DNA from: Patescibacteria group bacterium
GTDB lineage: Bacteria > Patescibacteriota > Minisyncoccia > Minisyncoccales > Staskawiczbacteraceae
DNA length: 57,920 nt
Reading direction: 5' to 3'
Assembly: GCA_018829965.1 (NCBI GenBank)
Contig: JAHJTG010000013.1
Location: 1-57,920 of the forward strand
The notes under the pieces were generated by a model. The model was not told where the DNA came from, ran no database searches, and saw nothing but the letters and a program-made list of their open reading frames with translations. Below are positions 3,788 to 41,259 of this stretch, piece after piece. The translations under genes and the position numbers were made by a program. Position 1 is the stretch's first letter. Every line of letters starts with the position of its first letter.

Positions 3788-4105
3788 ATGACAACCATTT
3801 TAACTGATGAAAATTTCGAAAAAGAAATACAGGATATAAATAAACCGGTTTTGGTCGATTTTTTTGCTACTTGGTGCGGACCATGCGCTATTTTAGGCCC
3901 GATTTTAGAAAAAATAGCAAATGAATTAAAAGATAAAATTGTTTTAATAAAAGTTGACCTTGATAATGTTCCCTTAATTGCCCAAAAATTTGGAATTGAT
4001 AGAATTCCTACTGTTATTCTTTTCAAGGCTGGAAAGCCAGTAGATGGTTTTATGGGATTAAGAGTAGAAGGGGATATTAAAGAATGGTTAGAAAAGATAA
4101 TATAG
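3788..4105 (+). CDS. trxA: Thioredoxin
   Basis: WCGPC active site, 105 aa. Confidence 0.92.
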   Translation: MTTILTDENFEKEIQDINKPVLVDFFATWCGPCAILGPILEKIANELKDKIVLIKVDLDNVPLIAQKFGIDRIPTVILFKAGKPVDGFMGLRVEGDIKEWLEKII

Positions 4106-4178
4106 GCGACGAATCGCCTATATATTTAATCGCTCGGTCGGAATAAAAATAAATTTTTATTTCTCCCTCGCTCATAAA
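4101..4178 (+). repeat. Leader cassette family F, copy 1
   Basis: Hairpin ATAGGCGA-CGAA-TCGCCTAT, then TATATTTAATCGCTCGGTCGGAAT..hairpin..TTCTCCCTCGCTCATAAAT. It ends 9 nt before ATG 4188. Confidence 0.8.
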
Positions 4179-4187
4179 TATAAAAAT

Positions 4188-4469
4188 ATGAAAAAAGATA
4201 ATATCCAAGATAAAATCGATGATTTGAATAAATGGTATGCTGATTACGCTAAAGAGAACGGATTCAAATTAAATCCCAAAAAAGAAATTACGCAAAAATT
4301 AATGAGAGGTTTATTGGAAAACGAGAAAAAATATGGTCAAAGATGTTGTCCGTGTAGAAGAGCCACGGGAGACAAAGAGACGGATGCAAAAATCGTTTGT
4401 CCTTGTTCTTACCATCGCGACGAGATTGAGAAAAATGGGCAGTGTCTTTGCGGATTGTTTATAAAGTAG
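4188..4469 (+). CDS. Ferredoxin:thioredoxin reductase catalytic-subunit-like protein
   Basis: CPC-x16-CPC-x...-C-x-C pattern (CCPCRR..VCPCSYH..QCLCGLF) typical of the FTR catalytic chain. Confidence 0.7.
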   Translation: MKKDNIQDKIDDLNKWYADYAKENGFKLNPKKEITQKLMRGLLENEKKYGQRCCPCRRATGDKETDAKIVCPCSYHRDEIEKNGQCLCGLFIK

Positions 4470-4481
4470 TATAATAAATAA

Positions 4482-4598
4482 ATATATAGATTTTTAAAAA
4501 TCTATATATTTGTGCGTTCGGTCGGAATGAAAATTTCGGTTGTTAAAAATAAAAACGTTATTTTCTCCTTCCTTAGCTCTCATCCCTTCCTCATTTAC
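4482..4598 (+). repeat. Leader cassette family F, copy 2
   Basis: Palindrome ATATATAGATTTTTAAAAATCTATATAT, then TTGTGCGTTCGGTCGGAATGAAAAT...CATCCCTTCCTCATTTAC. Confidence 0.8.
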
Positions 4599-4626
4599 AA
4601 ATATAATTAATAATCATTTTAATAAT

Positions 4627-5333: not shown

Positions 5334-5452
5334 ATAGAGATTATTAGTAATCTATATAATTGGTTCGCTCGCTCGGAATGAAAATTTCGGTTGTCAAAAT
5401 AAAAGTAAATTTTTATTTTTTCCTCCCTCAGTTTTCATTCCTTACTCGCTGC
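5334..5452 (+). repeat. Leader cassette family F, copy 3
   Basis: TATAGAGATTA-TTAG-TAATCTATATA, then ATTGGTTCGCTCGCTCGGAATGAAAAT...TTTTCATTCCTTACTCGCTG. Confidence 0.8.
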
Positions 5453-5476
5453 CAATTATTAACATCATTTAAAAAC

Positions 5477-7791: not shown

Positions 7792-8856
7792 GATTTAAGT
7801 AAGCTCAACGAAGTTTTAAAAGACGAACCGTCTTATCGTCAAAAACAGGCGCAAAAAGCTGTTTTTCAGGATTTAGCGGATAATTGGATGCAGGTACAAA
7901 CTCTACCTATTGAATTGAGAAAAGAACTGAAAAAGAGTTGTCCGCTAAAAATAGATTTTCAAGCGTCTGTTTCTCAAGACGAGAAAGTGATTAAAGGATT
8001 GATCACTCTTAAAGATGGATTGAAGGTAGAGACGGTTTTAATGAAGCATGGCGATAATCGAAATACGGTTTGCGTTTCTTCCCAAGTCGGATGCCCTTTG
8101 GGATGTGTCTTTTGCGCAACAGGGAATATCGGTTTTAAAAGAAGTCTTAGTATCTACGAAATTGTCGAGCAAGTGCTGTTTTTCGCCCGTTATTTGAAAA
8201 GCAAGGGACCTGCCCGCAGTGGCTTCGCCCGCCAGACACGCCGACTCGAGTCGCGCGGGCTGGCTACAAGCGATGCAGGCGGGGAGAGGATAACAAATGT
8301 CGTATTTATGGGAATGGGTGAGCCATTCTTGAATTACGATAATGTTCTGGGGGCGATACGGATACTAAATGATGAAGAGAGGTTTAATTTAGGCGCTCGG
8401 CATTTTTCTATCTCTACTGTCGGGATAATAGAAGGAATTGAAAAGTTTTCTCAAGAAAAACTGCAAGTTAACCTAGCTATTTCTCTGCATGCTCCGGATG
8501 ATAAATTACGGTCAGAGATTATGCCGATTAACAAAAAGTATTCTGTGAAAGAAGTATTAAAGGCAGTGGACGAGTATATAAAAAAAACAAAAAGAAGAGT
8601 AATGTTTGAATATGTTATGATAAAAGATGTAAATGATACTGATGAGTGCGCGAAAGAATTAGCAAAATTAGTAAAGAAGCCACTTTACTTCGTAAACTTA
8701 ATTTTGTACAATCCGACTGGCATTTTTAAGTCATCTGAACCCGCAAGAATTAAAAGGTTCAAAGAGATTTTAGAAAAGTATGGCGTACCGGTTACTCAAA
8801 GGTATCGTTTTGGTAAAGACCTTAAAGCTGCTTGTGGCCAGTTAGCGGGAAAATAA
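7789..8856 (+). CDS. rlmN: 23S rRNA/tRNA adenine-C2 methyltransferase (radical SAM) RlmN
   Basis: CPLGCVFCATG radical-SAM cluster and RlmN-like ends. Start moved to ATG 7789, since the track start 7762 lies in element K. Confidence 0.9.
   Translation: MDLSKLNEVLKDEPSYRQKQAQKAVFQDLADNWMQVQTLPIELRKELKKSCPLKIDFQASVSQDEKVIKGLITLKDGLKVETVLMKHGDNRNTVCVSSQVGCPLGCVFCATGNIGFKRSLSIYEIVEQVLFFARYLKSKGPARSGFARQTRRLESRGLATSDAGGERITNVVFMGMGEPFLNYDNVLGAIRILNDEERFNLGARHFSISTVGIIEGIEKFSQEKLQVNLAISLHAPDDKLRSEIMPINKKYSVKEVLKAVDEYIKKTKRRVMFEYVMIKDVNDTDECAKELAKLVKKPLYFVNLILYNPTGIFKSSEPARIKRFKEILEKYGVPVTQRYRFGKDLKAACGQLAGK
8209..8284 (+). repeat. GC-rich intragenic hairpin element, family GCI-1 (in rlmN)
   Basis: CCTGCCCGCAGTGGCTTCGCCCGCCAG...GGCTGGCTACAAGCGATGCAGGCGGGG, read through as PARSGFARQTRRLESRGLATSDAGG. 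Confidence 0.8.
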
Positions 8857-11725: not shown

Positions 11726-11843
11726 AAATCCTAAACACTAAATCCTAAATCCTAAATAAATTCAAAATAACAAATCCAAAAGGTTTTGAATTTTAAAATT
11801 TAGATTTTGAAATTGTTTAGAGTTTAGATATTAGAATTTAGGG
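11726..11843. repeat. Intergenic palindromic element family B (CCTAAATCC/GGATTTAGG words), copy 1
   Basis: AAATCCTAAACACTAAATCCTAAATCCTAAAT...centre...TTTAGAGTTTAGATATTAGAATTTAGGG. Confidence 0.75.
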
Positions 11844-11854
11844 CTTGTAATTGT

Positions 11855-12147: not shown

Positions 12148-12726
12148 ATGCACGATGCTACTTTGTGTCTTTTAATAAAACCTGCCCGCAATGCTTCGCC
12201 CGCCAGCAACGCTTCGCCCGCCAGAAACGCTGTATCTGCTGCGGACTGGCGTAGCGATGCGGGCTGGTATAGCGACGCAGGCGGGGATAACGAAATTCTT
12301 TTAGCGATGAAAAAGCGCGGTTTTGGAATGGGTAAATGGAATGGGGTGGGCGGAAAGCCGGATTTAGAAAAAGGGGATAAGACTATTATTGACACGGCTA
12401 TTAGAGAAACAGAAGAAGAAATTGGAGTTAAGCCGTCTAATTTAAAAAAGGTTGCATTATTGCGCTTTCGTTTTCCCTATGAGGAAAACTGGAATCAAGA
12501 TGTCTATGTTTTTTTAACTAATAATTGGGAAGGCGAATTAAAAGAATCAGAAGAAATGCTTCCGAAATGGTTTAAAACCAGCGAGATTCCTTATCAAGAA
12601 ATGTGGGATGATGATAAGTTTTGGTTGCCTCATATTCTGGCCGGAAAGAAATTAGAAGCCGACTTTATCTTTAAAGAAGGGGAGAAGATAGATAAGCATA
12701 CTATTAATTTTGTTTCAGAAATATGA
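12148..12726 (+). CDS. Nudix hydrolase (MutT-like)
   Basis: Nudix-box-like GGKPDLEKGDKTIIDTAIRETEEEIGV. Start moved to ATG 12148, because the track start 11998 overlaps the previous gene out of frame. Confidence 0.8.
   Translation: MHDATLCLLIKPARNASPASNASPARNAVSAADWRSDAGWYSDAGGDNEILLAMKKRGFGMGKWNGVGGKPDLEKGDKTIIDTAIRETEEEIGVKPSNLKKVALLRFRFPYEENWNQDVYVFLTNNWEGELKESEEMLPKWFKTSEIPYQEMWDDDKFWLPHILAGKKLEADFIFKEGEKIDKHTINFVSEI
12181..12286 (+). repeat. GC-rich intragenic hairpin element, family GCI-1 (in the Nudix gene)
   Basis: CCTGCCCGCAATGCTTCGCCCGCCAG...GCGACGCAGGCGGGG. Its reverse complement is near-identical to 15024-15111. Confidence 0.9.
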
Positions 12727-13367: not shown

Positions 13368-13387
13368 ATATATCATATATGATATAT
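13368..13387. promoter_or_regulatory. Perfect 20-bp palindrome ATATATCATATATGATATAT spanning the toxin start codon (candidate operator)
   Basis: The sequence is its own reverse complement. It lies between the promoter candidate and the first codons of the toxin-antitoxin operon. Confidence 0.45.
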
Positions 13388-13756
13388 AATAAAGAAGAAG
13401 AATATAAAGTAAAATTTTATAAAAGCACCAAAACCAACAAAAGTCCTGTTTTAGATTATATTGATAAATTAAATGTTAAAGAAAAAGCCAAGGTATTAAA
13501 ATATATTGAGTTTTTGAGAGTTAATAAAGGAGTTTTAGATGAACCATACTCAAAGCATATTAAAGGAAAAATTAGGGAATTAAGAGTTGATTTTTTCAAG
13601 TCAAAACACAGAATACTTTATTTTACCTTTATTAAGAGAAATATAATTTTACTTCACGCGTTTTTGAAAAAGACCGCCAAAACGCCGATAAACGAAATTA
13701 GGATAGCAGAAGAGAATTATAATAATGTTATAAATAATAACAAAATCTATGAATAA
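13379..13756 (+). CDS. RelE/ParE-superfamily toxin (Gp49/HigB-like)
   Basis: YKVKFYK..KSPVLDYI..L pattern, 125 aa, 8-nt overlap with a downstream HTH gene. Confidence 0.7.
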   Translation: MIYNKEEEYKVKFYKSTKTNKSPVLDYIDKLNVKEKAKVLKYIEFLRVNKGVLDEPYSKHIKGKIRELRVDFFKSKHRILYFTFIKRNIILLHAFLKKTAKTPINEIRIAEENYNNVINNNKIYE

Positions 13757-14264: not shown

Positions 14265-14660
14265 ATGCGTATATCAAAAAAATCACAATACGGCCTTCGT
14301 TCAATGGTTTATCTTGCAAAAAAATCTTCAAAAGATAACCCTTGCTCGATAAACGAAATCTCAAAAAAAGAGAATGTCCCTTTTGAGTTTCTGGGGAAAA
14401 TAATGTCTGAATTGGAAAAAGCGAATTTGGTTAAAACAAAAAAAGGAGTAAGCGGAGGATATTTTTTAGCAAAGTCGGCAAACAAAATTACGCCAGGCGA
14501 TATAGTTTTAGCATTAGAGGAAAATACCGAATTGGTTAATTGTTCTGGTTGTCCGATGGCAGGCAGCTGTTCCAGCGAAGATGTTTGGGACGAGGTTCAA
14601 GAATCAATGGACAACAGCTTGAATGCAAAAACTTTAGCAGACTTAATTAAGAGAAAATAA
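14265..14660 (+). CDS. Rrf2-family transcriptional regulator (IscR-like)
   Basis: MRISKKSQYGLRSMVYLA N-terminus and a C-terminal Cys cluster CSGCPMAGSC. Confidence 0.85.
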   Translation: MRISKKSQYGLRSMVYLAKKSSKDNPCSINEISKKENVPFEFLGKIMSELEKANLVKTKKGVSGGYFLAKSANKITPGDIVLALEENTELVNCSGCPMAGSCSSEDVWDEVQESMDNSLNAKTLADLIKRK

Positions 14661-14748
14661 TATAGAAATGGCTTCACCGTTTATATAATTAATCGTTCGG
14701 TCGGAATATATAAAAACGAGTTTTCATATATTCCTCCCTTTTTCATAA
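14661..14748 (+). repeat. Leader cassette family F, copy 4
   Basis: TATAGAAATGG..CCGTTTATATA, then ATTAATCGTTCGGTCGGAATATATAAAAAC-GAG-TTTTCATATATTCCTCCC. It ends 2 nt before ATG 14751. Confidence 0.8.
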
Positions 14749-14750: not shown

Positions 14751-16001
14751 ATGAAGCATGTATATTTTGATTATGCGGCGACAACGCCGGTTGATTCTCG
14801 CGTAAAAAAAGCGATGCTCCCTTATTTTTCAGAAAAATTCGGGAATACAATGTCTCTCCATAGTTTCGGCCAAGAGGCAAAATTAGTTTTAGAAAAGAGC
14901 AGGGAAACAGTGGCGGATTTAATTAGAGCTAAACCTGAAGAAATAATTTTTACCGGTTCGGCAACCGAAAGCAATAATTTGGCGTTAAAAGGCATAGCAT
15001 TTGCGAATCAGAATAAGGGGCATACCCGCCTGCATCGCTATGCCAGCCCGCATCGCTACGCCAGTCCGCAGCAGATACAGCGTTTCTGGCGGGCGAAGCG
15101 TTGCGGGCAGGTAATAATTTCTCCGATTGAACATCCTTGTATTATTGAAACTGCAAAATGGCTGCAAAAGCAGGGTTTTCAGATAACAAAACTAAAGGTT
15201 GATAAATACGGAATGGTTAATCCTTTAGCTCTTGAAAAAGAAATTAGGAAAGATACTATTTTAGTTTCTGTGATTCACGCCTCAAATGAAATCGGCACAA
15301 TCCAACCGATAGAAAAAATTGGAAAGATCTGTCGCAACAAGGGAGTATATTTCCACACAGATGCTGTTCAAAGCTTTGGAAAAATCCCCATTGATGTAAA
15401 TAAGATGAACATAGATTTGCTGACTGCAAGCTCTCATAAGATGTATGGTCCCAAGGGAGCTGCTTGTTTGTATATAAGAGAGGGTGTAAGAATAGAGCCG
15501 ATTTTGCACGGTGGAGGCCAAGAAAGAGGATTAAGGTCTTCAACTGTGAATATTCCTGCAATTGTCGGTTTTGCCAAGGCTTGTGAAATCTGCAAGAAGG
15601 AAATGGGGAAAGAAGCTCAAAGGTTGATTAAATTAAGAGATAAATTAATAAGGAATGTTTTAAAGATAAAAGGCAGTTATTTAAACGGTCATCCTCAAAA
15701 AAGATTGCCGAATAATGCTAATTTCCGTTTTGATTTCATAGAAGGGGAATCAATAATTTTACGATTGGATCTGCTCGGAATAGCTGTCTCAACCGGTTCT
15801 GCTTGTTCTTCAATAAAATTAGAGCCAAGTTCTGTTCTTTTAGCAACAGGCTTGAAGCCGGCAGAAGCTCATGGTTCTTTGCGCATTTCTTTGGGTCGCT
15901 GGACTACGGAAAAAGAAATCGATTATTTAATAAAAGTTTTGCCGGGAATAATAAATCAATTAAGAAAAATTTCACCGTTTAAGGTTATAAAATCCGCATA
16001 A
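14751..16001 (+). CDS. iscS: Cysteine desulfurase (IscS/NifS type)
   Basis: PLP-lysine motif SSHKMYGPKG and catalytic loop GSACSS. It contains a ~29-aa insert. Confidence 0.9.
   Translation: MKHVYFDYAATTPVDSRVKKAMLPYFSEKFGNTMSLHSFGQEAKLVLEKSRETVADLIRAKPEEIIFTGSATESNNLALKGIAFANQNKGHTRLHRYASPHRYASPQQIQRFWRAKRCGQVIISPIEHPCIIETAKWLQKQGFQITKLKVDKYGMVNPLALEKEIRKDTILVSVIHASNEIGTIQPIEKIGKICRNKGVYFHTDAVQSFGKIPIDVNKMNIDLLTASSHKMYGPKGAACLYIREGVRIEPILHGGGQERGLRSSTVNIPAIVGFAKACEICKKEMGKEAQRLIKLRDKLIRNVLKIKGSYLNGHPQKRLPNNANFRFDFIEGESIILRLDLLGIAVSTGSACSSIKLEPSSVLLATGLKPAEAHGSLRISLGRWTTEKEIDYLIKVLPGIINQLRKISPFKVIKSA
15024..15111 (-). repeat. GC-rich intragenic hairpin element, family GCI-1 (in iscS, inverted orientation)
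   Basis: ACCCGCCTGCATCGCTATGCCAGCCCGCATCGCTACGCCAGTCCGCAGCAGATACAGCGTTTCTGGCGGGCGAAGCGTTGCGGGCAGG is the reverse complement of the Nudix copy minus one 18-nt unit. Confidence 0.9.
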
Positions 16002-16087: not shown

Positions 16088-16495
16088 ATGCCGATAAAAA
16101 TTATGTATTCAAAAAAAGTAATGGAGCATTTTCAAAAACCCCACAATTACGGGAGAATGAAAAATCCTGATGGGGTTGGTTGCGTTGGTAATCCTCAATG
16201 TGGAGATGTAATGAAACTATATATCAAAGTATGGAAGAATAAGAAAGGGGAAGAGATAATAAAAGATATATTATTCGAAACTTTTGGGTGTGCGGCCGCT
16301 ATAAGCACGAGCAGTGTTGTTACCGACTTAGCAAAAGGGAAAACATTAAAAGAAGCTTTGAAGATAGATAATAAAAAAATCGTTGAGTCATTAGGCGGCT
16401 TACCCTTGATAAAAATCCATTGTTCCGTGCTTGGCGCTGACGCTCTAAAAAAAGCAATTCAAGGTTATCAATCAAAGAAGAAAGATGATAAATAA
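16088..16495 (+). CDS. iscU: Fe-S cluster scaffold protein IscU/NifU-like
   Basis: Three conserved Cys (GNPQCGD, FGCAAAI, IHCSVL). Confidence 0.9.
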   Translation: MPIKIMYSKKVMEHFQKPHNYGRMKNPDGVGCVGNPQCGDVMKLYIKVWKNKKGEEIIKDILFETFGCAAAISTSSVVTDLAKGKTLKEALKIDNKKIVESLGGLPLIKIHCSVLGADALKKAIQGYQSKKKDDK

Positions 16496-17690
16496 AGAGA
16501 ATAAACCCCGCATCAGAACATTCGGTTCAGTACGGGGAAAGAAAGTAATAGTGGCGATGTCGGGAGGTGTTGATTCAAGCGTGGCGGCGGCTCTGTTGAA
16601 AAGAGATGGTTTTGATGTTGTTGGTGTACATCTCAAATTTTGGTCAGAAGGTAAGAGTAGCGCAGAAAATAGGTGTTGCACATTAGAGAGCGAAAAAAGA
16701 GCGAGAATAGTTGCCAAAAAATTAAATATTCCTTTTTATGTTTTTAACTTTGAAAAAGAATTTAAAAGAAAAGTAGTCGGGTATTTTTTAAAAGAATATA
16801 GGGCTGGCAGAACACCTAATCCATGTGTTGTTTGTAATAAAGAAATTAAATTCGGTTTATTGATAGAAAAAGCATTAAAATTAGGTGAGGATTTTGTGGC
16901 CACGGGACACTACGCCCGCCTCGGGCGGGAAATCCCAAATCCCAAATCTCAAACCCCAAACAAACCCAAAACCCAAAACCCAAAACCTATAAAACTTTTT
17001 AAAGCCAAAGATGAGAATAAAGACCAGTCGTATTTTTTATGGCAATTAAATCAAAGGCAATTAAATAGAGTTTTATTTCCCATAGGCAATTATACTAAGC
17101 CTCAAGTTCGCGCTTTGGCTAAAAAGTTTAAATTACCGGTTGCCGAGACCCCGGAATCTCAAGAGGTTTGTTTTATCAAGAATAAGACAAATGATTTTCT
17201 CAAAAAATATATTAAAATAAAAATAGGTGAGATAAGGGATAAACAAGGTAGGTTGTTAGGTGAGCATCAAGGTTTATGTTTTTATACTATCGGTCAAAGA
17301 AAAGGAATCGGTTTACCCGGCGGTCCATATTATGTTTTAGATAAAGATATTAAAAAGAACATTTTAGTTGTTACGCAGGACGAAAAAGATCTATTAAGGA
17401 AAGATTTGATTGTTGGAAATGTAAACTGGATTTCTGGTAAAAAACCCCGCCTTCGCGAAGGCTATAGCGGGCAGGCGAAAATGCCGATTAAAGTAATGGC
17501 GAAGATAAGGTATAGGAATAAAGGCGCGTCAGCTGTCATTAAAAAAGCCGCCGTAGGCGAGCCTCGCCAAGGGCGGGAAAACAGAAAGATAAAAGTAATT
17601 TTTTCAAAGCCGCAGAGAGCAATCACTTCAGGCCAGTCAGCGGTCTTTTACCGAGGAGGCGAATTGCTGGGAGGTGGAGTAATAGAATAA
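16485..17690 (+). CDS. mnmA: tRNA 2-thiouridine(34) synthase MnmA
   Basis: PP-loop VAMSGGVDSSV plus CCTLE, TGHYAR and KDQSYFL motifs. It carries three repeat-derived inserts. Confidence 0.9.
   Translation: MINKENKPRIRTFGSVRGKKVIVAMSGGVDSSVAAALLKRDGFDVVGVHLKFWSEGKSSAENRCCTLESEKRARIVAKKLNIPFYVFNFEKEFKRKVVGYFLKEYRAGRTPNPCVVCNKEIKFGLLIEKALKLGEDFVATGHYARLGREIPNPKSQTPNKPKTQNPKPIKLFKAKDENKDQSYFLWQLNQRQLNRVLFPIGNYTKPQVRALAKKFKLPVAETPESQEVCFIKNKTNDFLKKYIKIKIGEIRDKQGRLLGEHQGLCFYTIGQRKGIGLPGGPYYVLDKDIKKNILVVTQDEKDLLRKDLIVGNVNWISGKKPRLREGYSGQAKMPIKVMAKIRYRNKGASAVIKKAAVGEPRQGRENRKIKVIFSKPQRAITSGQSAVFYRGGELLGGGVIE
16913..16990 (+). repeat. Composite in-frame insert in mnmA: GC hairpin plus family-B-like CCCAAA(T/A)C tract
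   Basis: CCCGCC-TCG-GGCGGG, then AAATCCCAAATCCCAAATCTCAAACCCCAAACAAACCCAAAACCCAAAACCCAAAACC, translated GREIPNPKSQTPNKPKTQNPKP between HYAR and KLFKAKDENKDQSYFL. Confidence 0.8.
17445..17475 (+). repeat. Short GC element family GCI-3 (in mnmA)
   Basis: CCCCGCCTTCGCGAAGGCTATAGCGGGCAGG. Related to 28046-28075 and 47874-47900. Confidence 0.65.
17547..17577 (+). repeat. Short GC element family GCI-4 (in mnmA)
   Basis: GCCGCCGTAGGCGAGCCTCGCCAAGGGCGGG. It shares GGCGAG-S-CTCGCC...GGGCGG with the rplF insert. Confidence 0.6.
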
Positions 17691-18926: not shown

Positions 18927-19073
18927 ATGCCCAGTAATACAATCCCCAGTAGTTTTTTGCCAAACGGGAAAGGAGCGAAAAACTATCGAAGGATGTGTCT
19001 GGGCTTAAACAATCAATACCATCGCTAACGCAAAAAACAGCGTTTGGTTCTGGGGATTGATATACTGGGTATG
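18927..19073 (+). repeat. Element K, copy 2: structured leader whose closing helix contains the SDR start codon
   Basis: ATGCCCAGTAATACAATCCCCAG pairs with CTGGGGATTGATATACTGGGTATG. The inner helix is GCCAAACG/CGTTTGGT. Compensatory changes relative to copy 1. Confidence 0.8.
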
Positions 19074-19913
19074 TTTTTAAGAAAAGCCCTAAGACACAAT
19101 TTTTGTAATTTAGTAGACAAGGTAGCAATTATAACCGGAGCCAAGCAGGGGATGGGGAAAGCCCATGCTTTAAAATTAGCTAAAGCGGGAGCTAATGTAG
19201 TAGTTTCTGATATCTCTCAAGAGGAATGCCAAATTGTTGTAGATGAAATAAAAAAAGCCGGCGGTAAGGCCATAGCAGTAAAATGCGATATAAGCAATAA
19301 AACAGAAGTTGAGCAATTAGTTAAAAAAACAGTTGAAACTTTTGGTAAATTAGATATTTTAGTAAATAACGCTGGTATTTGTCCCTTCAAGCCATTTTTA
19401 GAAATGACCGAGGAAGAATTCAGCAAGGTGATAGATATAAACCTTAAGGGATACTTTTTATGCGCCCAAACAGCAGCCAAAGAAATGTCCCGACCCCGAC
19501 CTGTCGTGGGTCGCGGATCCTCGACGGCTTCGCCGTCGGGAGCAAAATCTGGCGGAGCGATTGTTAATATCGCTTCAATTGCAATGGGGCAGGTGGGAGT
19601 TGGGTTTCAGGGTTTAACGCATTATTGCGCTTCAAAGGGCGGTATTGTAGCTATGGCAGAAGCAATGTCTTTAGAGCTGGCCCCGCTTGGCATAAGAGTA
19701 AACACAATTGCTCCGGGAGCGATTGATACTCCGATGGCGGCTTCAGTAAAGCAGGATATGAAAACCTTAGAAGCGACCTTATCGGGTATTCCTTTGGGCA
19801 GAATGGGCAATCCAGAAGAAATTTCCAACGCAGTTCTATTTTTAGCTTCAGATGAGTCTTCATATATTACAGGTTCAGTTGTTGTAGTTGATGGAGGTTG
19901 GCTTGCCGGTTAA
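19071..19913 (+). CDS. Short-chain dehydrogenase/reductase (FabG-like)
   Basis: TGAKQGMG, NNAG and YCASKGG motifs. Start moved to ATG 19071. It carries a ~19-aa GC insert. Confidence 0.85.
   Translation: MFLRKALRHNFCNLVDKVAIITGAKQGMGKAHALKLAKAGANVVVSDISQEECQIVVDEIKKAGGKAIAVKCDISNKTEVEQLVKKTVETFGKLDILVNNAGICPFKPFLEMTEEEFSKVIDINLKGYFLCAQTAAKEMSRPRPVVGRGSSTASPSGAKSGGAIVNIASIAMGQVGVGFQGLTHYCASKGGIVAMAEAMSLELAPLGIRVNTIAPGAIDTPMAASVKQDMKTLEATLSGIPLGRMGNPEEISNAVLFLASDESSYITGSVVVVDGGWLAG
19487..19543 (+). repeat. GC-rich intragenic element family GCI-2 (in the SDR gene)
   Basis: GTCCCGACCCCGACCTGTCGTGGGTCGCGGATCCTCGACGGCTTCGCCGTCGGGAGC (57 nt = 19 codons), with hairpin CGACGGC-TTC-GCCGTCG. Confidence 0.75.
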
Positions 19914-19960: not shown

Positions 19961-19996
19961 TAAAAAACATAATCAAGGTCGAGCTCTTAAAATAAA

Positions 19997-20061
19997 CCTT
20001 ACGAATTACAAATCAAACCGAATTACGAATTCGTAATTCGAAAATATTCGTAATTCGTAGG
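19997..20061. repeat. Intergenic palindromic element family D (ACGAATTACGAAT / ATTCGTAATTCG), copy 1
   Basis: CCTTACGAATTACAAATCAAACCGAATTACGAATTCGTAATTCGAAAATATTCGTAATTCGTAGG. Confidence 0.8.
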
Positions 20062-20074
20062 AAATTAGGAAATT

Positions 20075-21168: not shown

Positions 21169-21173
21169 ACTAA

Positions 21174-21310
21174 AATTCTAAGCACTAAACTCTAAATCCT
21201 AAACAAATTCAAATGTTTCAAATTCCAAATTCCAAACGACGACGGGTTTGTGATTTATAGTATTGTGATTTGGGATTTATTTAGAATTTAGAAATTAGGA
21301 TTTAGAATTT
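21174..21310. repeat. Intergenic palindromic element family B, copy 2
   Basis: TTCTAAGCACTAAACTCTAAATCCTAAAC...TTTAGAATTTAGAAATTAGGATTTAGAATTTC. It ends 4 nt before ATG 21315. Confidence 0.75.
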
Positions 21311-21314
21311 CATT

Positions 21315-22636: not shown

Positions 22637-22808
22637 CAACACCCGGTGTTGTTAAATCAATTAAATCAACACCCGGTGTTGAACACCCGTGTTGTATAAA
22701 ATATTTGTAAAAAAGTACACAAAAGTAAAACAATAAAACAATTAGAACACTTCGCATTAACGGAACACTAACGGAACACCCGGTGTTCCGTTAATAAACG
22801 GTGTTCTA
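22637..22808 (+). repeat. REP-like cluster (left of the RAYT gene)
   Basis: CAACACCCGGTGTTG at 22637 and 22667, CGGAACACCCGGTGTTCCG at 22782, and degenerate half-sites between them. Confidence 0.85.
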
Positions 22809-22820: not shown

Positions 22821-23546
22821 ATGCCTTCAAGAGAAGTTCAATTTTATCCAGGAGAATTTTATCATATTTATAATCGTGGCAACGCAAAGCAGGATATTTT
22901 TTATAATGACAGGGATAGATATAGATTTCTTCAAGCAATGTATTTATCAAATAATAGCGATTGTTCTGTTCGGCTAATGGAATTAGAAAAAAATAAAAGC
23001 GGATATACCCTTGCCGATATAAAAAAAGTTTTTAATGAAGGAAAAATTTCTTATAATCCATTGGTTAGAATAAGCGCTGATGTTTTAATGCCTAATCATT
23101 TTCATTTGCTGATTGAGGAACTGCAAGAGAAGGGGATCAGTCGTTTTATGCAGAGGTTGGGAGATAGTTACGGGAAATATTTTACTATAAAATATGATCG
23201 TCCGGGCAGTTTGTTCCAGGGTCGTTTTAAGGCAGTTCATATAAAAAATGACGATCAACTTAGATATTTATTGGCTTATATTAATGCGATAAACCCGGCG
23301 CAATTAATAGAACCAAAAATTAAAGAAAAAGGTATTGAGGATTTCCAAAAAATATTAGAAGGAATAAATAAATATTCATGGGGTACTCATTTTGAATATA
23401 TGGGCAAGAGAGAATCTGCTATTATTGATAAAGGATTATTGGGAAAAATTTTTTCAACTCCAGAAATTTATTACGAATTTATCAAAGAAATTTTACATGG
23501 GAAAGAAGATATGTGGAGCCCCATAGAAGGATTAATGCTTGATTGA
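22821..23546 (+). CDS. IS200/IS605-like HUH Y1 transposase, REP-associated tyrosine transposase (RAYT)-like
   Basis: HUH motif LMPNHFHLLIEE, Tyr motif LAYINAINPA, N-terminal FYHIYNRGN. Confidence 0.75.
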   Translation: MPSREVQFYPGEFYHIYNRGNAKQDIFYNDRDRYRFLQAMYLSNNSDCSVRLMELEKNKSGYTLADIKKVFNEGKISYNPLVRISADVLMPNHFHLLIEELQEKGISRFMQRLGDSYGKYFTIKYDRPGSLFQGRFKAVHIKNDDQLRYLLAYINAINPAQLIEPKIKEKGIEDFQKILEGINKYSWGTHFEYMGKRESAIIDKGLLGKIFSTPEIYYEFIKEILHGKEDMWSPIEGLMLD

Positions 23547-23554: not shown

Positions 23555-23670
23555 GGTGTTTCAACACCCGGTGTTGAACACCAGGGAATCAACACCCGGT
23601 GTTGATTGAACGCCCCTCAACACCCGAAACGCTCAACACGAATACTCAACACCCGGTGTTGAACACCCGA
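23555..23670 (+). repeat. REP-like cluster (right of the RAYT gene)
   Basis: TCAACACCCGGTGTTGA at 23561, 23589 and 23646, plus half-sites CAACACCCGAAAC and GAACACCCGAAAA. Confidence 0.85.
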
Positions 23671-23796
23671 AAATTTATAACCGGTACCAATTTTTTTAAC
23701 AAAATACTTGGCTTGACAGAGATTTTTATGGTAAAATATATTAATTATAAGCATATTTTGGGATTAAGAACTCCCAGAAGTTTTATTGCATAAAAA

Positions 23797-26700
23797 ATGT
23801 TGTGGCAGATGAAAAATAAAACAAGCGGGTTTCGTAAATCTGGCTTGTGGAACACCCGGTGTTCCACAAGTGGTAAATCCGCCAGGCTAAAATCTTTTTT
23901 GAGTTCGCTATTAAACGGGATTATAATCGCCGGTATTTTTTCATTTATCTTTTACGCTTTTGCCGCGCCACCCGATAGTCCCTATAATCCAGGAGAAATT
24001 CTTAATCCCAGTTGTGCGCCGGGGGATGCTTATTGTACAGTGCTTACGCCAGCAATTTCTGGTAATAATACTGACATCACCGGCCTAAGAGGACTGAATA
24101 CTCAAGAAGCAATTAAAATTTCGCCTTTTGGAACTTCAACAGGTGAAACAGGAGAAATTAGATTTTTGGAATTATCTGCCGGTGGAACTAATTATATTGG
24201 CTTTAAATCTTCGGATAGTTTAACTGCTAATGTTATTTGGGTTTTGCCGGATGCAGACGGAAGTACAAGTCAAGCTTTAATAACCAATGGCTCAGGTAGT
24301 TTAAGTTGGGGAGACGTTCAAGCTTACGATGCTGATTTAACAACTTACGCGGGAATAACTCCAAGCGCTAATATTCAATCATTTCTTGGTTCAGCCGACT
24401 ATGCTACTGCAAGAACTAATCTCGGAGTTGCTATTGGAAGCAATGTTCAAGCTTACGAAGCAACACTTACAGGGCTCGCTAGCATGCCAGCTACTGTAGG
24501 TTTTGTGAAACAGACAGCAGAAAATGTATTTGGAATAGATGAGAGCGTTTATCTCACTGCTGAAACCGACCCTGTTGTGAAAGCCCTTACTGGCATAATT
24601 AAATCTGATGGTTCTACAATATCCGCAATTACCGACAATTCTTCTAATTGGGACGCGGGATATACTTATCGTCTCATTTCTGCCAGCGGAACTTCTCCTT
24701 TAACCTTAACTTTAGCGAGCAATGGATTAACAGGGAGCATAGCCGATGCTACCGCTTCAACAAAAGGAATTGCATCGTTCAATTCCACAAACTTTTCTGT
24801 AGCTTCTGGCGCGGTAAATACGATACAGGATATAGCGACAACTTCTAGCCCTACTTTTGCAGGACTGACTTTAAGCGCCGCAAACATTGTAACCGACACG
24901 ACAACAGGAACAAAAATAGGAACAGCAACTGACCAGAAGCTCGGGTTTTTCAACGCTACTCCTGTTATTCAGCCGACAAGCACCACTGAACTAAGACAAG
25001 CTTTAATTGATCTGGGGTTATACGCTTCAGGCGGAGCAACTCCGCTTAATTTAAATGGCGGGGCGTTTACCACCACAGGCACTCTCGGAGCAGGGGCGAT
25101 AACAGGGACTTCTCTGAGTGCTGGTTCTGGAACACTTACCGCGGGGATAGGAACATTAACAAGCCTTAATCTTACGGCAGATACCAATCAGATAGTTTTA
25201 GATTCCGATGGGACATATACCACTACCCTTACAGGTGGTGCAACTGGTTCATCTAAAATTATTACTTTTCCCGATATTACTGGGACCGTTGCCCTTACTA
25301 CAGGAGCAGGTGGTTTATCTTCTTATCTACCACTTGTAGGTGGCACTATGGCAGGAGATATTTTACTTACGGGAACAGTAAATCTTGGTGCTACTGGAAG
25401 CCGTTTTACTAATATATGGGGAACGACCATAACAGGGACTTCTCTTACCGACGGCACAGCAACTTTATCAGGGGGAAACCTAACTGGTATGGGTGATATT
25501 ACAGGAACGGATATTGACTTATCTTTAGGCACTGGTGATATTTTAACCTCTGGGACTTTAGGTGCAGGGGCTACTACTTTAACAGGTGATTTGATTGTAG
25601 ACGAACATAGCGTTTATATAAATAGTGCTTTGGGGGACGAAATTGCACCTGCACTTGAAGCCGCTAATTGGACTTTAGGTGCTATGTGGTCAGCAGGAGC
25701 AGGACAATTAGTAAGAACTTTCATTTATCCCGCATCAAGCACAGCAACCCCGTCAGGAACTTTTACGATTACAGCAGGTCATCTTTATAAAGTTACAATT
25801 ACCGCCTCTGCAGTTAGCGGAACAATTACTTATACGCTTGGTGGTGTGTCGGGAACGGCTATCACAGCAACGACAATTACAGATTATATAACAGCCACAA
25901 CTACTGGTAAGATAATCTTTACAGGTGCACCATCGGCTACTTGCACGATAACTTCTGTAAGTGTTAAAGAGGTTACTACTGATGGTGATTTGACGGTTCA
26001 GGGAGATGCGTCTATTTGGGGTGATTTGACAATTACGGGCACGGTTCTAGATGTAGCGAAAATTGAGAGAGCTTATATAGGAACATCTGGTTATGACTTG
26101 CCGTCAGCTACAAGTTATTTCACAGTAGCACATGAAGGTTCTGGATTTATTAAAATGGCTGGTTTTACAAACGTTGCGGAAAGTGGCACTGCTATTCGTG
26201 CTATGAGAGGACGAGGAACGATAGCATCTCCAGCAGTTGTCGCTGAGAATGATAGAATGTTTGCGTTTCAAGCGGGTGCTTTGGATTCCGACCTTGCCGA
26301 GAACTTTCCCGCACAAATGGCTTTTTATGTTGATGGTGCTGTTAGTGCTGGGAATATCCCCACAAGGTTTTCTATCAGCACAGGATATTCAGCAGGAACA
26401 AGAACAGAATATTTAATAGTAAAATCATCAGGTGATGTATGGTTGCCCGTAGATGACCAAGAATTATTATTTGGCACGGCACACGACTTTGGAATAACCT
26501 TTAACGGAAGTGGTGGTGTAATTCAATCTGATTTAGTAACCGCAACCGACTACTTACAACTGCGTGGCGGGACAAATGGGATAGATTTTAATATAGGGGC
26601 AACGGAACAGATAAGTTTAATTGATGGTGTATTGCAACCCACAACTACAAATGATATAGATTTAGGAACTTCCTCGTTGCTTTACAAAGATATTTGGGAA

Positions 26701-28143
26701 ACAGGGAATCATTATTTTAGGGATAGTGCTATTTATATCGCAAGTTTAGATGATGGACACCTTGACTTGACGGCGGATGTTAGTATTGATTTGAATGGGG
26801 TAGTTATGCTCGGAACTTTAGGAGTCACCGATACCGCTACTCATCTTTGTAGAAATAGCAGTAATCAAATCGCTGGTTGTAGCGCCGATATTTCAGAATA
26901 TGCGCCGACAGCAGATGATGTTGGAGCTGGCGATATCGTAATGGTAAGCAAAGACAAGGAAAATCCAATTGAAGACCCGACCACTCCTTTCTTATTAGAA
27001 AAATCTTCTGAAAAAAATCAAAAAGAAATTATAGGGGTGATAGCGGATATTGCTGGCGGCGCATCAATTGGAGAGAAGAAAGGGGAACATTACAAACCAT
27101 TGGTTTTAGTTGGAAGGGTGCCTGTTAAAGTATGTGGAGAGAACGGCGCCATTGAACGGGGCGATTATCTTACTTCTTCTTCAATCCCGGGAGTAGCAAT
27201 GAAGGCAATAGAGCAAGGTTCAGTTATAGGAAAAGCATTAGAGAGCTATAACGGATCAGAGGTTGGTAATATTATGACTTTTGTTAATCTCGGTTGGTAT
27301 GGAGGAGAGATTGTTGGAAGCGGTTCTTTGGCGGATGTGGGAATTGAAGACAATGTAAGCCTTATTCAGAGAATAAAAGATATCTTTGTCTCATTGGGTG
27401 TCGCGATTGAAAACGGCGTAATGACCTTAAAAGAAATAATTGCTGATAAACTTACGGTCAAAGTCGCTAAAATAGAAAAATTGGAAATGGTTGATGGCAC
27501 GACCGGCGAAATTTACTGTACCTGGATTGAAAATGGAGAATGGCAGAAGGTAAAAGGAGAGTGCGGAATAGAGCAATCTCCGGTGCCAGAAGTTTGCGAT
27601 TCAAACCATCTGAATTTATGCCAAAATGAAACAGATTGCACAGTTGCCAGTGGTCATTGGTATAATGAAGTTTGCAATAATGAGCAACAAAATGATGGCG
27701 GTCAAGAACCTGTGGCGGTTTGCGATATTGATAATTTGAATCTGTGTTTGATTCAAACTGATTGTGAGGCTAATGTCGGCTATTGGTACAACGAAATTTG
27801 TAATAGCGAACAACAGGTGGTAGTTTGTGTCCCTGGCTGGCAATGTAGTGAATGGCAGCTGACTGCGGACACTGTTGCTTGCAATGAAACTTTTACTCAA
27901 ATTCGAATCTGCGCTGATTTAAATAATTGCGGCTCTGATGAAGGGAAACCAACCGAACAACAAGAAGCCGTTGGAATTCAAAATTGTCAGACCGGATTTG
28001 AGCCTGAACCTGAACCCGAGCCTGAACCTGAACCGACACCCGAACCCCCGCCTTCGCCAGAGGCTACGGCGGGCGAACCAGAACCCCTGAACCAGAACCC
28101 GAGCCTGAATCTGAGCCCGTTGAAACACCATAATAATTTTTAA
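23797..28143 (+). CDS. Giant (1448-aa) N-terminally anchored surface protein with Thr/Gly-rich fibre-like repeats, Cys-rich modules and an (EP)n tail
   Basis: Long uninterrupted ORF with a TM span at residues ~35-55, TGT/GTL-rich beta-like repeats, and duplicated CD..NLNLC..TDC..G.WYNE.CN modules. The start is uncertain because a REP copy lies in codons 18-24. Confidence 0.7.
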   Translation: MLWQMKNKTSGFRKSGLWNTRCSTSGKSARLKSFLSSLLNGIIIAGIFSFIFYAFAAPPDSPYNPGEILNPSCAPGDAYCTVLTPAISGNNTDITGLRGLNTQEAIKISPFGTSTGETGEIRFLELSAGGTNYIGFKSSDSLTANVIWVLPDADGSTSQALITNGSGSLSWGDVQAYDADLTTYAGITPSANIQSFLGSADYATARTNLGVAIGSNVQAYEATLTGLASMPATVGFVKQTAENVFGIDESVYLTAETDPVVKALTGIIKSDGSTISAITDNSSNWDAGYTYRLISASGTSPLTLTLASNGLTGSIADATASTKGIASFNSTNFSVASGAVNTIQDIATTSSPTFAGLTLSAANIVTDTTTGTKIGTATDQKLGFFNATPVIQPTSTTELRQALIDLGLYASGGATPLNLNGGAFTTTGTLGAGAITGTSLSAGSGTLTAGIGTLTSLNLTADTNQIVLDSDGTYTTTLTGGATGSSKIITFPDITGTVALTTGAGGLSSYLPLVGGTMAGDILLTGTVNLGATGSRFTNIWGTTITGTSLTDGTATLSGGNLTGMGDITGTDIDLSLGTGDILTSGTLGAGATTLTGDLIVDEHSVYINSALGDEIAPALEAANWTLGAMWSAGAGQLVRTFIYPASSTATPSGTFTITAGHLYKVTITASAVSGTITYTLGGVSGTAITATTITDYITATTTGKIIFTGAPSATCTITSVSVKEVTTDGDLTVQGDASIWGDLTITGTVLDVAKIERAYIGTSGYDLPSATSYFTVAHEGSGFIKMAGFTNVAESGTAIRAMRGRGTIASPAVVAENDRMFAFQAGALDSDLAENFPAQMAFYVDGAVSAGNIPTRFSISTGYSAGTRTEYLIVKSSGDVWLPVDDQELLFGTAHDFGITFNGSGGVIQSDLVTATDYLQLRGGTNGIDFNIGATEQISLIDGVLQPTTTNDIDLGTSSLLYKDIWETGNHYFRDSAIYIASLDDGHLDLTADVSIDLNGVVMLGTLGVTDTATHLCRNSSNQIAGCSADISEYAPTADDVGAGDIVMVSKDKENPIEDPTTPFLLEKSSEKNQKEIIGVIADIAGGASIGEKKGEHYKPLVLVGRVPVKVCGENGAIERGDYLTSSSIPGVAMKAIEQGSVIGKALESYNGSEVGNIMTFVNLGWYGGEIVGSGSLADVGIEDNVSLIQRIKDIFVSLGVAIENGVMTLKEIIADKLTVKVAKIEKLEMVDGTTGEIYCTWIENGEWQKVKGECGIEQSPVPEVCDSNHLNLCQNETDCTVASGHWYNEVCNNEQQNDGGQEPVAVCDIDNLNLCLIQTDCEANVGYWYNEICNSEQQVVVCVPGWQCSEWQLTADTVACNETFTQIRICADLNNCGSDEGKPTEQQEAVGIQNCQTGFEPEPEPEPEPEPTPEPPPSPEATAGEPEPLNQNPSLNLSPLKHHNNF
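23848..23866 (+). repeat. REP-like copy inside the annotated 5' end of the giant gene
   Basis: TGGAACACCCGGTGTTCCA, translated LWNTRCS. Confidence 0.8.
28046..28075 (+). repeat. Short GC element family GCI-3 (in the giant gene tail)
   Basis: CCCCGCCTTCGCCAGAGGCTACGGCGGGCG, translated PPSPEATAGE. Confidence 0.6.
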
Positions 28144-28190: not shown

Positions 28191-28505
28191 ATGAAAACGC
28201 TCCAAAAAACCTCTCTTTCAAATTTAAAGAAGTATTTTTGGGAAGTGGATGCCGATAAACTTGATTTTAAAAAATATCCAGAATATGTTATTTCTCGGGT
28301 TTTGGAATATGGCGACGAAACGGCAGTAAGATGGTTATTTAAGAATTTTAAAAAACCATATTTAAAAAGAGCATTAATTAAAAGACGAGACATTTCAGCT
28401 AAAACCGGTAATTATTGGGGATTAATTTTGGGTATTCCTAAAAATAGGATTTTATGTTTGAAGAAACAATCTCGAAACAAACAAAAGAAAACCTGGAAAT
28501 TTTAG
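28191..28505 (+). CDS. Small partner protein of the AbiEii-like gene (putative antitoxin, DUF6922-like)
   Basis: KYFWEVDADKLDFKKYPEYVISRVLEYGDETAVRWL pattern. Overlaps the downstream NTase-like gene by 52 nt. Confidence 0.45.
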   Translation: MKTLQKTSLSNLKKYFWEVDADKLDFKKYPEYVISRVLEYGDETAVRWLFKNFKKPYLKRALIKRRDISAKTGNYWGLILGIPKNRILCLKKQSRNKQKKTWKF

Positions 28506-29095
28506 GAAAGTTAAAGGTATTAAAGGATGCTTATCTCGCCGGCGGCACTGCCTTGGCTTTGCAAATAGGCCATAGGGTTTCTTACGACCTCGATTTTTTT
28601 ACTGACAAGAAATTTCAGGCCCAGATTTTTTTAAAAAAAATTAGCCAGATTAAATCATATCGTCACGAACTGATTGAATGGGGAACAATATTGGGAAAAT
28701 TGGGTAATGTAAAATTTAGCGTTTTTTATTATGATTATCCATTATTAAAAAAAACAATCCAATTTAAAAATATCAATATAGCCAGTATCAATGATATAGC
28801 CGCCATGAAAATAGCGGCAATTAGTGAAAGGGGCGCAAAAAGAGATTTTATAGATTTATATTTTATTCTCCAAAAATTTACTCTTCCTGAAATACTTGAT
28901 TTTTATAATCAAAAATACAAAAAATTGTCCTCCAATCTGATTCATATAAAGAAAAGTTTAGTTTATTTTAATGATGCTGAAGAAGAAGAAATGCCGAAGA
29001 TGTTAAAACGAATTTCTTGGAATGAGGTAAAATTATTTTTCCAAAAAGAAATAACCAAATGCGCGGCTTATGAATTATTAATTAAGAAAATTTAA
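28454..29095 (+). CDS. Nucleotidyltransferase AbiEii/AbiGii-like toxin family protein
   Basis: YLAGGTALALQIGHRVSYDLDFF and AAMKIAAISERGAKRDFIDLYFIL motifs. Confidence 0.6.
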   Translation: MFEETISKQTKENLEILGKLKVLKDAYLAGGTALALQIGHRVSYDLDFFTDKKFQAQIFLKKISQIKSYRHELIEWGTILGKLGNVKFSVFYYDYPLLKKTIQFKNINIASINDIAAMKIAAISERGAKRDFIDLYFILQKFTLPEILDFYNQKYKKLSSNLIHIKKSLVYFNDAEEEEMPKMLKRISWNEVKLFFQKEITKCAAYELLIKKI

Positions 29096-38075: not shown

Positions 38076-38078
38076 ACT

Positions 38079-38172
38079 ATCAGCGTAAATCCGCTATCAT
38101 CGGCGTAATCAAAAAAGGTATTTCAATACACAGAAAAGATTACCGCTGATTAATAGCTGATTGTCACAGATA
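38079..38172 (+). repeat. Intergenic palindromic element family A, copy 1
   Basis: ATCAGCGTAAATCCGCTATCATCGGCGTAATC...GATTACCGCTGATTAATAGCTGATTGTCACAGATA fills the rpsL-rpsG spacer. Confidence 0.85.
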
Positions 38173-38177
38173 AAAAA

Positions 38178-41230: not shown

Positions 41231-41259
41231 ATAGAAAGTAGAAAATAGAATTTTGAAAA

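Follow-up and report, generated by a model that had tools for sequence, protein, structure and literature searches.

A 57,920-nt stretch of a Patescibacteria, Staskawiczbacteria-like contig, hereafter the window (always this whole stretch), carries short GC-rich sequences that interrupt protein-coding genes in frame. Most likely, these inserts are short palindromic pieces of non-autonomous mobile DNA, copies that belong to several families and are similar to repetitive extragenic palindromic (REP) sequences and Rickettsia palindromic elements (RPEs). An earlier note on this DNA had described three such hairpin families, GCI-2, GCI-3 and GCI-4, in the genes for an SDR, MnmA, a giant surface protein and the ribosomal proteins S10, L6 and L22, together with a hairpin in rplD, the gene for L4, and had regarded them as several lineages of one kind of intragenic element. 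Alignment, ortholog polymorphism and tests for homologous DNA support that view. The GCI elements are insertions that are dispersed in multiple copies, polymorphic among orthologs, phased in length, read in multiple frames and conserved in structure. The overall GC content of the window is 35.4%, and 24 islands with at least 70% GC were found with a 30-nt sliding window, many of which are palindromic and lie within open reading frames (ORFs). Every sequence that the earlier note named was present at, or no more than 1–3 nt from, the position that it gave.

The search patterns for GCI-2, GCI-3 and GCI-4 were written from the data itself, with the numbers of expected matches taken from dinucleotide shuffles. 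Each pattern matched the sites described below and no others in the window, with about 0 matches expected by shuffling. Given that the patterns are data-derived, recurrence in other genomes is the stronger test, and all three families recurred there. The family-level similarity survived proper alignment and extended beyond this genome. Compared with shuffled sequences, significant hairpin strength was predicted for two families, with z scores of -4.0 for GCI-2 and about -3 for GCI-4.

The GCI-2 element of the SDR gene (19044–19913) occupies 54 nt at 19488–19541 on the plus strand. The sequence at 19487–19543 is GTCCCGAC...GGATCCTCG...CGGGAGC and is 74% GC, compared with 35.4% for the window. 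Its layout is TCCCGA-[nested hairpin]-TCGC-GGATCC-TCGA-CGGC TTC GCCG-TCGGGA, which forms a double hairpin with a DNA folding energy of -19.9 kcal/mol (z -4.0), and the encoded peptide is SRPRPVVGRGSSTASPSG. In L004, an SDR ortholog with 87% DNA identity, the corresponding site is empty and reads GAAATG^GCAAAA, where the caret marks the position of the element in the window. Exactly 54 nt are absent from L004, and the filled and empty sites reveal no target duplication. The insert had been reported as 57 nt or 19 codons; its presence is confirmed, and the empty site of L004 corrects its length to 54 nt or 18 codons. The net gain of the protein is 17 amino acid residues because one codon is missing downstream of the 18-codon insert. 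In an alignment of 35 SDR orthologs, the basic form has 263 residues and the sequence AAKEMAKQKKGxIVN, and the window protein has 17 additional residues at this place. Its closest relative, P0002, which is 91% identical in the alignment, has no extra residues at the insertion point. The insert is predicted to be disordered: in the AlphaFold model, it is a coil between the helix of residues 114–139 and the strand of residues 163–167, with pLDDT values below 50.

In L001 (protein P0057; three independent samples), an element identical at 52 of 54 positions (96.3%) is found at the identical nucleotide of the SDR gene. Outside the element, the L001 and window genes are only 70.7% identical, and their 100-nt flanks are 63 and 78% identical. 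L003, which is 82% identical to L001, possesses a 42-nt version of the element located 6 nt further downstream. Further SDR orthologs contain different GC-rich inserts in that loop, such as SPARRSLGEGGG and the SPARNASPAR... peptides; the latter are found in P0072 and P0087. These varied elements and the shifted site are therefore the product of repeated independent insertions into one tolerant loop. Sequence comparison also indicates that GCI-2 spreads by copying, given the 96.3% identical element in 70.7% identical genes and the many dispersed copies. Two other histories of the SDR site were rejected. An ancestral element followed by repeated precise loss, as the main explanation, is countered by an element that is 96% identical in 71%-identical genes, as well as by the close relatives L001 and L003, whose insertion sites are 6 nt apart. 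Recombinational transfer of the element together with its flanks is ruled out by identities that fall at the element boundaries.

The second GCI-2 copy of the window, which the earlier note had placed in the N-terminal extension of S10 (43191–43592), was borne out by the pattern TCCCGA-N6-30-GGATCCTCG, which matched twice in the window with 0.00 matches expected. This copy is a short variant of 36 nt (12 codons, codon-phased) at 43215–43250 on the plus strand. It encodes SRLSRGSSSETG, shares the skeleton TCCCGAC...GAGGATCCTC...CGGGA with the family and, similar to the SDR copy, forms a double hairpin, although a weak one (z -1.4). L006, the closest S10 ortholog, does not have this variant. GGATCC occurs only twice in the window, at 19515 and 43230, each time at the centre of a GCI-2 copy, compared with about 5.6 occurrences expected from base composition. 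Its scarcity outside GCI-2 may reflect avoidance, such as that caused by a restriction system.

A scan of metagenome contigs with GGATCCNCGACGGCNNNGCCGTCGGGA identified 76 loci with 66 distinct GCI-2 copies, and the GC content of all these contigs was 32–49%. The same pattern had 0 matches in viral contigs; thus, there is no sign of phage carriage of GCI-2. No GCI-2 was found in 80 ribosomal-protein loci of related species (1.3 Mb), which points to a patchy distribution. With a relaxed core motif, 14 of the fetched loci contained two or three copies in which both hairpins varied, and L085 contained three copies in 11.7 kb. The hosts are unrelated housekeeping genes and include those for Mur ligase, trigger factor, PheS, CCA-adding enzyme, UppP, acetate kinase, UvrD, enolase, ATP synthase alpha (AtpA) and AlaRS as well as MnmA in two other lineages (P0132 and P0171). 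Some copies are located between genes.

The architecture of GCI-2 is TCCCGA-[variable hairpin]-TCG N GGATCC N CGA-[hairpin]-TCGGGA. It consists of two copies of one hairpin unit, 18–30 nt long, arranged head to head around the GGATCC centre. Among the 16 copies with a length of 48 nt, 100% of the stem cells pair, and the left hairpin, which is not constrained by the search pattern, has compensatory changes at two stem positions. The right hairpin is fixed by the search pattern and is therefore uninformative on the conservation of pairing. The loop triplets are found in both complementary versions (TTT in 13 copies and AAA in 11; TTC in 10 and GAA in 10).

A selection filter acting on the intragenic copies is visible. 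Of the 66 GCI-2 copies, 47 are in ORFs of at least 200 residues, and most others are in truncated ORFs. The lengths of all 47 are divisible by three (42, 45, 48, 51, 54, 60, 66, and 84 nt), and the five copies whose lengths are not multiples of three are all in short ORFs. Moreover, GCI-2 is read in five of the six combinations of frame and orientation, and its orientation relative to the host gene is 25:22. The resulting peptides are unrelated to one another: SR..GSSTA.PSG, VP..SRILDG.AVGT, SRR.SRRGS, VPTA.PSRILD, and.PDG.AVEDPR. The GC-rich families are open in 3–6 of the six frames, compared with 0 of 6 for the AT-rich intergenic palindromes D1 and D5.

For GCI-4, the core GGCGAGSCTCGCC matched at 17556 and 52355, with 0.01 matches expected, in agreement with its proposed occurrence in L6 and mnmA. 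The layout is CCGCCC-loop-GGGCGAG S CTCGCCC-loop-GGGCGG, and the family recurs in L013, L019, L023, and L037. The copy of the L6 gene (52276–52872) is 45 nt long at 52339–52383 on the plus strand and encodes GPVPAGRGSPNSIGR (z -3.1), with the layout CCGTCCC-loop-GGGCGAG G CTCGCCC-loop-GGGCGG. The corresponding 15-residue insert was found in 0 of 67 L6 orthologs. The copy of mnmA is 33 nt long at 17547–17579 on the plus strand and encodes AAVGEPRQGRE (z -3.0).

The polypeptide lengths of MnmA orthologs ranged from 340 to 440 residues, and the window MnmA contains three inserts, one from GCI-3, one from GCI-4 and one (16923–16994) derived from the intergenic AAATCC(T/C) repeat, which is AT-rich. 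This last insert is a variant of the repeat without stop codons and encodes GREIPNPKSQTPNKPKTQNPKPIK. Most of the 120 MnmA orthologs lack these inserts. Part of the AAATCC-derived insert is shared with the MnmAs of L168 and L169, in which the GCI-3 site is filled by diverged, homologous GC-rich DNA. Other lineages possess different elements in two of the same MnmA loops, including other GC-rich inserts in the GCI-4 loop. In mnmA of L168, a further GC-rich insert is apparently nested in the AAATCC-derived insert. The NifU gene upstream of it (L168:1-1537) has an intein with a LAGLIDADG endonuclease domain; the window NifU (16088–16495, 135 residues) has no intein.

The GCI-3 pattern CCTTCGC-N2-6-GCTAYRGCGG matched exactly at 17450, 28051, and 47878, with 0.00 matches expected, and the element has the form CCGCCTTCGC-TAAA-GCTACGGCGGGC. 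All three copies are on the plus strand. The first (17448–17477) is in mnmA (16485–17690) and encodes RLREGYSGQA, and the second (28048–28077) is in the C-terminal tail of the 1448-residue surface protein (23797–28143) and encodes PPSPEATAGE. In the second copy, the outer stem CCCGCC/GGCGGG forms (z -1.6). The suggestion that GCI-3 is read in different frames was confirmed by the peptides PRLREGYSGQA and PPSPEATAGE. The third copy is decayed (47874–47900), lies in the lysine-rich C-terminal tail of L22 (47490–48080), encodes SSFAKATAD and has no significant hairpin left. In L045, an unrelated genome, the tail of L22 contains a near-identical element that encodes PAFAKATAGE. GCI-3 was also identified in tpiA on the same contig, 7 kb past the window (L172:14655-14690), in the L4 gene of L025 and in L032. 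Thus, the description of GCI-3 as a family of GC-rich hairpins stood with regard to a sequence family that recurs in other genomes, but only a weak hairpin remains of its structural part.

The L4 gene (44883–45563) contains a 15-codon insert at 45288–45332 on the plus strand, which encodes NENLRFSTGQAKTKL. The 15 residues were found in 0 of 78 L4 orthologs. The perfect GAAAACC-TTC-GGTTTTC hairpin at 45291–45307, noted earlier in rplD, is present within this insert; it is 41% GC and its fold is not significant (z -1.4). The 3' part of the insert, TACGGGGCAGGCAAAA, is similar to TATAGCGGGCAGGCGAAA of the mnmA GCI-3 copy, and the L4 insert may be an AT-decayed relative of GCI-3. This link is left tentative because the alignment is poor, despite the similar peptide and 3' motif.

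Presence and absence among orthologs is polymorphic in SDR, L6, L4, and MnmA. Where the inserted peptides are shared with distant orthologs (L001, L003, L168, and L169), the DNA of those orthologs shares the GC-richness and the palindromy and is homologous, so these peptides do not argue against the families. The inserts had also been said to account for much of the extra length of their host proteins. That holds for SDR (17 of 17 extra residues), L6 (15 residues), L4 (15 residues) and MnmA (about 45 residues in three inserts), but not for S10 (12 of about 30 residues), L22 (about 9 of about 85) or the giant surface protein (10 of 1448). The terminal extensions of S10 and L22 are variable and lysine-rich, and the elements constitute only part of them; the copies there are just moderately GC-rich (58–59% GC).

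GCI-2 and GCI-4 are head-to-head pairs of a small hairpin unit, of the form X-loop-X'-X-loop-X', and can fold as a double hairpin or cruciform. If the inserts are mobile palindromes, they would land throughout the gene-dense genome, and persistence within a gene would need a length divisible by three, the absence of stop codons from the frame that is read and a loop or tail that tolerates 10–20 extra residues. GC-richness provides both stable hairpins and freedom from stop codons, which would explain why GC-rich families are found in genes and AT-rich ones between them. The inserts would then be transcribed and translated within the host protein as residues of disordered loops, and the translated inserts are probably near-neutral. 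The elements may be mobilized in the form of single-stranded hairpins, and the enzyme may be an HUH tyrosine transposase of the REP-associated tyrosine transposase (RAYT)/IS200 type that inserts them 3' of a T-rich ...TTG motif. The GCI-2 flank consensus is ...TTTTG | TCCCGA ... TCGGGA | C, with T at -2 in 49 of 64 copies, G at -1 likewise in 49 of 64, and a less constrained right flank. The lack of a duplication, the hairpin ends and the one-sided flank preference together form the pattern expected of HUH single-strand transposition.

A gene for a RAYT-like HUH tyrosine transposase of 241 residues is present in the window at 22821–23546 on the plus strand; it is given here as context only. 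Its product matches PF01797 with 27.8 bits (cut-off 23). The sole NCBIfam match is NF047646 (REP-associated tyrosine transposase) with 30.9 bits, below the equivalog cut-off of 80, which suggests a distant RAYT relative rather than an equivalog. The HUH motif is NHFHLLIE and the tyrosine motif is YLLAYINAINP. A sequence search of the PDB with this protein gave no match. About 4000 homologs were found, and the named sources are essentially all Patescibacteria-like. Clusters of the palindrome TCAACACCCGGTGTTGA (repeat family D4) flank the gene upstream at 22637–22705, on the left side of the REPtron, and downstream at 23561–23685, on its right side; four solo copies, all of them intergenic, are found at about 31455, 35761, 36362, and 38668.

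Similar to the window gene, the transposase gene of each of five further contigs is flanked by a palindrome of its own or, in the case of L171, has a GC-rich palindrome downstream. In L170, the flanking palindrome TTGCTTGGCCSGGCCAAGCAA has copies at 1193–1213, 1927, and 2692. The copy at L170:1193-1213 is in frame in the upstream adjacent ORF for a 619-residue surface protein, where it encodes QLLGRAKQ and lies within an insert that is missing from the homologous window protein. This copy shows that, in this phylum, genes are entered in frame by the repeats of REPtrons. In L165 (1–1180), L166 and L167, which are from Staskawiczbacteria, a reverse transcriptase gene and an Avd-like accessory gene are located about 2 kb from a RAYT-like gene; this pair is of the diversity-generating retroelement (DGR) type.

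Several results weigh against mobile palindromes moved by such an enzyme. A tblastn search of the fetched loci with the window transposase found none near any GCI-2 copy, and a scan for ORFs with the HUH...Y..NP motif found no transposase within about 5 kb of GCI-2 copies, in searches that covered about 0.55 Mb of flanking DNA. The window's own RAYT-like gene is flanked by a palindrome, TCAACACCCGGTGTTGA, that is not a GCI element, and no transposase was tied to GCI-2, GCI-3 or GCI-4 in the sequences examined. The G at -1 and the C at +1 of the GCI-2 flanks could belong to the element instead of the target. The insertion boundaries come from a single filled/empty pair, the two sequences of which are from different genomes. 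GCI-3 folds no better than shuffled sequence (z -0.4, -1.6, and +0.2), and the translation of the inserts is deduced from frame conservation rather than observed. Finally, a test for open-frame bias, which the earlier note had proposed, gave no significant excess over shuffles for individual window copies. At the family level, 38 of 66 GCI-2 copies are open in all six frames, compared with 6.5% of shuffles, a figure that is inflated and not an independent count as the copies share a skeleton that is partly fixed by the search pattern.

That the elements are mobile but moved by another enzyme is unlikely. Such an enzyme could be a DDE transposase acting on TCCCGA/TCGGGA, as for a classical MITE (a miniature transposable element with inverted repeats), or a reverse transcriptase in a copy-and-paste route. 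DGR-type and group II reverse transcriptases are common in Patescibacteria. The perfect 6–7-nt terminal inverted repeats, the reverse transcriptase and Avd near the RAYT homolog in L165–L167 and the lack of a cognate RAYT for the GCI families in the sampled flanks are all consistent with this explanation. However, the SDR filled/empty pair has no target-site duplication, and no parent insertion sequence (IS) carrying GCI-2 ends was found. For the reverse transcriptase route in particular, the occurrence of GCI-2 in both orientations and with both complementary loop versions fits hairpins at the DNA level better than an RNA intermediate. The same symmetry bears on the idea that the hairpins are selected in place as mRNA regulators (translational pausing, RNase processing or transcript stabilization), with their spread being recruitment, which we regard as very unlikely. 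Its attraction lies in the strong folds (-13 to -20 kcal/mol, z -2.5 to -4), the compensatory stem changes and the copies between genes. An mRNA function, however, would not predict the lack of orientation preference (25:22) and the loops in both complementary versions, nor does it fit the unrelated hosts, arbitrary loop positions, close orthologs without elements and a family, GCI-3, that barely folds.

Two further explanations were considered. In one, the elements are DNA recognition sites, either for competence uptake and recombination or for GGATCC restriction-modification, and were spread among co-occurring Patescibacteria by biased uptake and recombination. The confinement of GGATCC in the window to the two GCI-2 copies, with about 5.6 occurrences expected, and the near-identical copy at the identical SDR site of a distant genome would fit. 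The insertions add length, however, unlike motifs built by substitution; moreover, the flanks were not co-converted, with 63–78% identity directly outside the element, and several unrelated families coexist, all of which makes this account highly improbable. In the other, the inserts are segments of protein that are adaptive and specific to a lineage, such as the ribosomal extensions of Patescibacteria, and the palindromy of their DNA is incidental. Ribosomal proteins of the clade do bear lineage-specific tails and N-terminal extensions. Given that one DNA is read in five frames into unrelated peptides, that the closest orthologs lack the inserts and that the SDR insert is predicted to be disordered, we consider adaptive segments extremely improbable.

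As mobile palindromes, the GCI elements are best regarded as belonging to a kind of selfish DNA that is already known, in which they form new families with some properties that set them apart. RPEs were reportedly described by Ogata et al. in 2000 as selfish DNA in protein-coding genes. Similar to RPEs, the GCI elements are in-frame palindromes of housekeeping genes that are unrelated to one another, in a genome that is small, AT-rich and gene-dense; they are absent from orthologs, compatible with the protein fold, divided into several families, polymorphic among relatives and without a known transposase. Different from RPE-1-type elements, which are about 100–150 bp long and encode one conserved peptide in one frame, the GCI elements are 27–60 nt long and GC-rich, use both orientations and as many as five reading frames, and come from another phylum. 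The two are set apart in sequence by these lengths and frames and by the Rfam gathering scan of the window, which had 0 matches, rather than by direct alignment. In-frame palindromic insertions are known from Rickettsia (PMC10969869, PMC3733652), and intragenic REP dimers that encode 20–30 residues are known from Opitutus terrae and Rickettsia conorii (PMC3733652).

REP super-families are defined by a GTAG or CGTC tag, and the CGTC REPs have a CCA-like tail (PMC3733652). GCI-2 has no GTAG tag, CGTC tag or CCA tail; the CGTC within its second hairpin is base-paired. Similar to REPs and bacterial interspersed mosaic elements, GCI elements are short dispersed palindromes (two GCI-2, three GCI-3 and two GCI-4 copies in the window) with hairpin units of 18–30 nt, mostly head-to-head dimers, a conserved stem foot and a variable top. 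However, known REPs are mostly extragenic, whereas about 70–90% of GCI-2 copies are intragenic. The palindrome-flanked RAYT-like gene of the window resembles a REPtron, but no RAYT flanked by GCI units was found in about 0.55 Mb of GCI-2 flanks. The TCCCGA/TCGGGA inverted repeats are similar to those of MITEs derived from DDE transposons; the lack of a target duplication, as seen in the one SDR pair, is different. Palindrome-associated elements derived from IS200/IS605 originate from recognizable IS ends and are usually longer than GCI elements. They share with GCI the lack of target duplication, a hairpin at each end and a conserved flank motif on one side, but no parent IS is known for GCI. 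GC-rich hairpin elements, including double-hairpin elements, are also found in AT-rich mitochondria, such as the GC42 clusters of yeast (PMC4478555) and the repetitive hairpin elements (RHEs) of sponges (PMC2800124). They are similar to GCI in being GC-rich hairpins of AT-rich compact genomes, with substitutions concentrated in loops, merging and shuffling of units, interspecies transfer and some insertion in coding regions. They are different in being organellar and mostly intergenic, in their reported putative target duplications and in their sequences, which are unrelated to GCI.

No description of such elements in Patescibacteria or the Candidate Phyla Radiation was found in the searchable literature, which is not proof of novelty; analogues were found only in other taxa. 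It is possible, if rather doubtful, that they constitute an undescribed class of REP-type transposons that live in genes. Such a class would consist of double hairpins with lengths in multiples of three, free of stop codons in nearly all frames, moved by a phylum-specific clade of RAYT-like HUH enzymes, exchanged between species, repeatedly hitting the same protein loops and forming a major ongoing source of the insertions and extensions by which the housekeeping and ribosomal proteins of Patescibacteria stand out.

Patescibacteria make up a large share of bacterial diversity and have tiny, gene-dense genomes, and their proteins often contain unexplained insertions. If many of these insertions are mobile palindromes, they should be masked in alignments, phylogenies and structure predictions, and spuriously shared peptides, among them SFAKATA, GSSTASPSG, and SPAR, would influence gene callers and homology searches. 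They would also constitute a natural experiment on the tolerance of essential proteins, including L4, L6, L22, and S10, to random loops. Moreover, REPtrons beside in-frame copies of their own repeat are a tractable system for the question of whether RAYT-type enzymes mobilize REPs.

The window contains the str/S10/spc ribosomal cluster and genes for Fe-S assembly, mnmA, the SDR and the 1448-residue surface protein, among others. The top matches of its genes are in Patescibacteria, chiefly Candidatus Staskawiczbacteria, and its ribosomal protein L2 is only about 75% identical to that of the nearest species representative. A scan of the window for tRNA and tmRNA found none. A larger family, GCI-1, consists of hairpins of 18-nt units (CCCGCCAGCAACGCTTCG) that encode SPAR/ASPA-type peptides. 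Its copies at 8200–8286, 12181–12288, 15025–15111, and 53089–53162 lie in frame within genes for a radical-SAM protein, a NUDIX protein, a class-V aminotransferase and L18. Between the copies at 12199–12288 and 15022–15111, complementarity is 94%.

The ribosomal-protein genes are separated by spacers of unusual length, which are packed with long AT-rich palindromes of tandem 6–7-nt units, of the types (AAATCCT)n...(AGGATTT)n, GTAGCGTATAGGG...CCCTAAACCC and (CGAATTA)n, which are closed in all frames. One group of these palindromes is located at 11726–11848, 21173–21312, 43039–43171, 49603–49700, and 54461–54562, a second at 45553–45631, 48084–48162, 49360–49431, and 49949–50027, and a third at 19995–20067, 48808–48945, and 51658–51762. 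Two repeat families of about 136 nt (79–88% identical) are also found between ribosomal-protein genes, one at 38062–38197, 47024–47159, and 52160–52295 and the other at 46090–46226 and 50403–50539.

A conserved, recurrent intergenic module consists of a small hairpin followed by AATCGCTCGGTCGGAATGAAAAT and then by TTTTCTCC...TCGCTCATAAATAT. It is found at 4092–4200, 4476–4604, 5353–5459, 14655–14711, 41181–41249, 41708–41837, and 43757–43825 and terminates at or just before several start codons, including those of EF-Tu (41836) and of the gene at 43814. This module could be a promoter, a leader or another repeat family. Genes of toxin-antitoxin type are also present, namely a Gp49/HigB-like gene at 13379–13756 and, directly behind the gene for the giant surface protein, a DUF6922 gene and then one for an AbiEii nucleotidyltransferase toxin (28191–29095).

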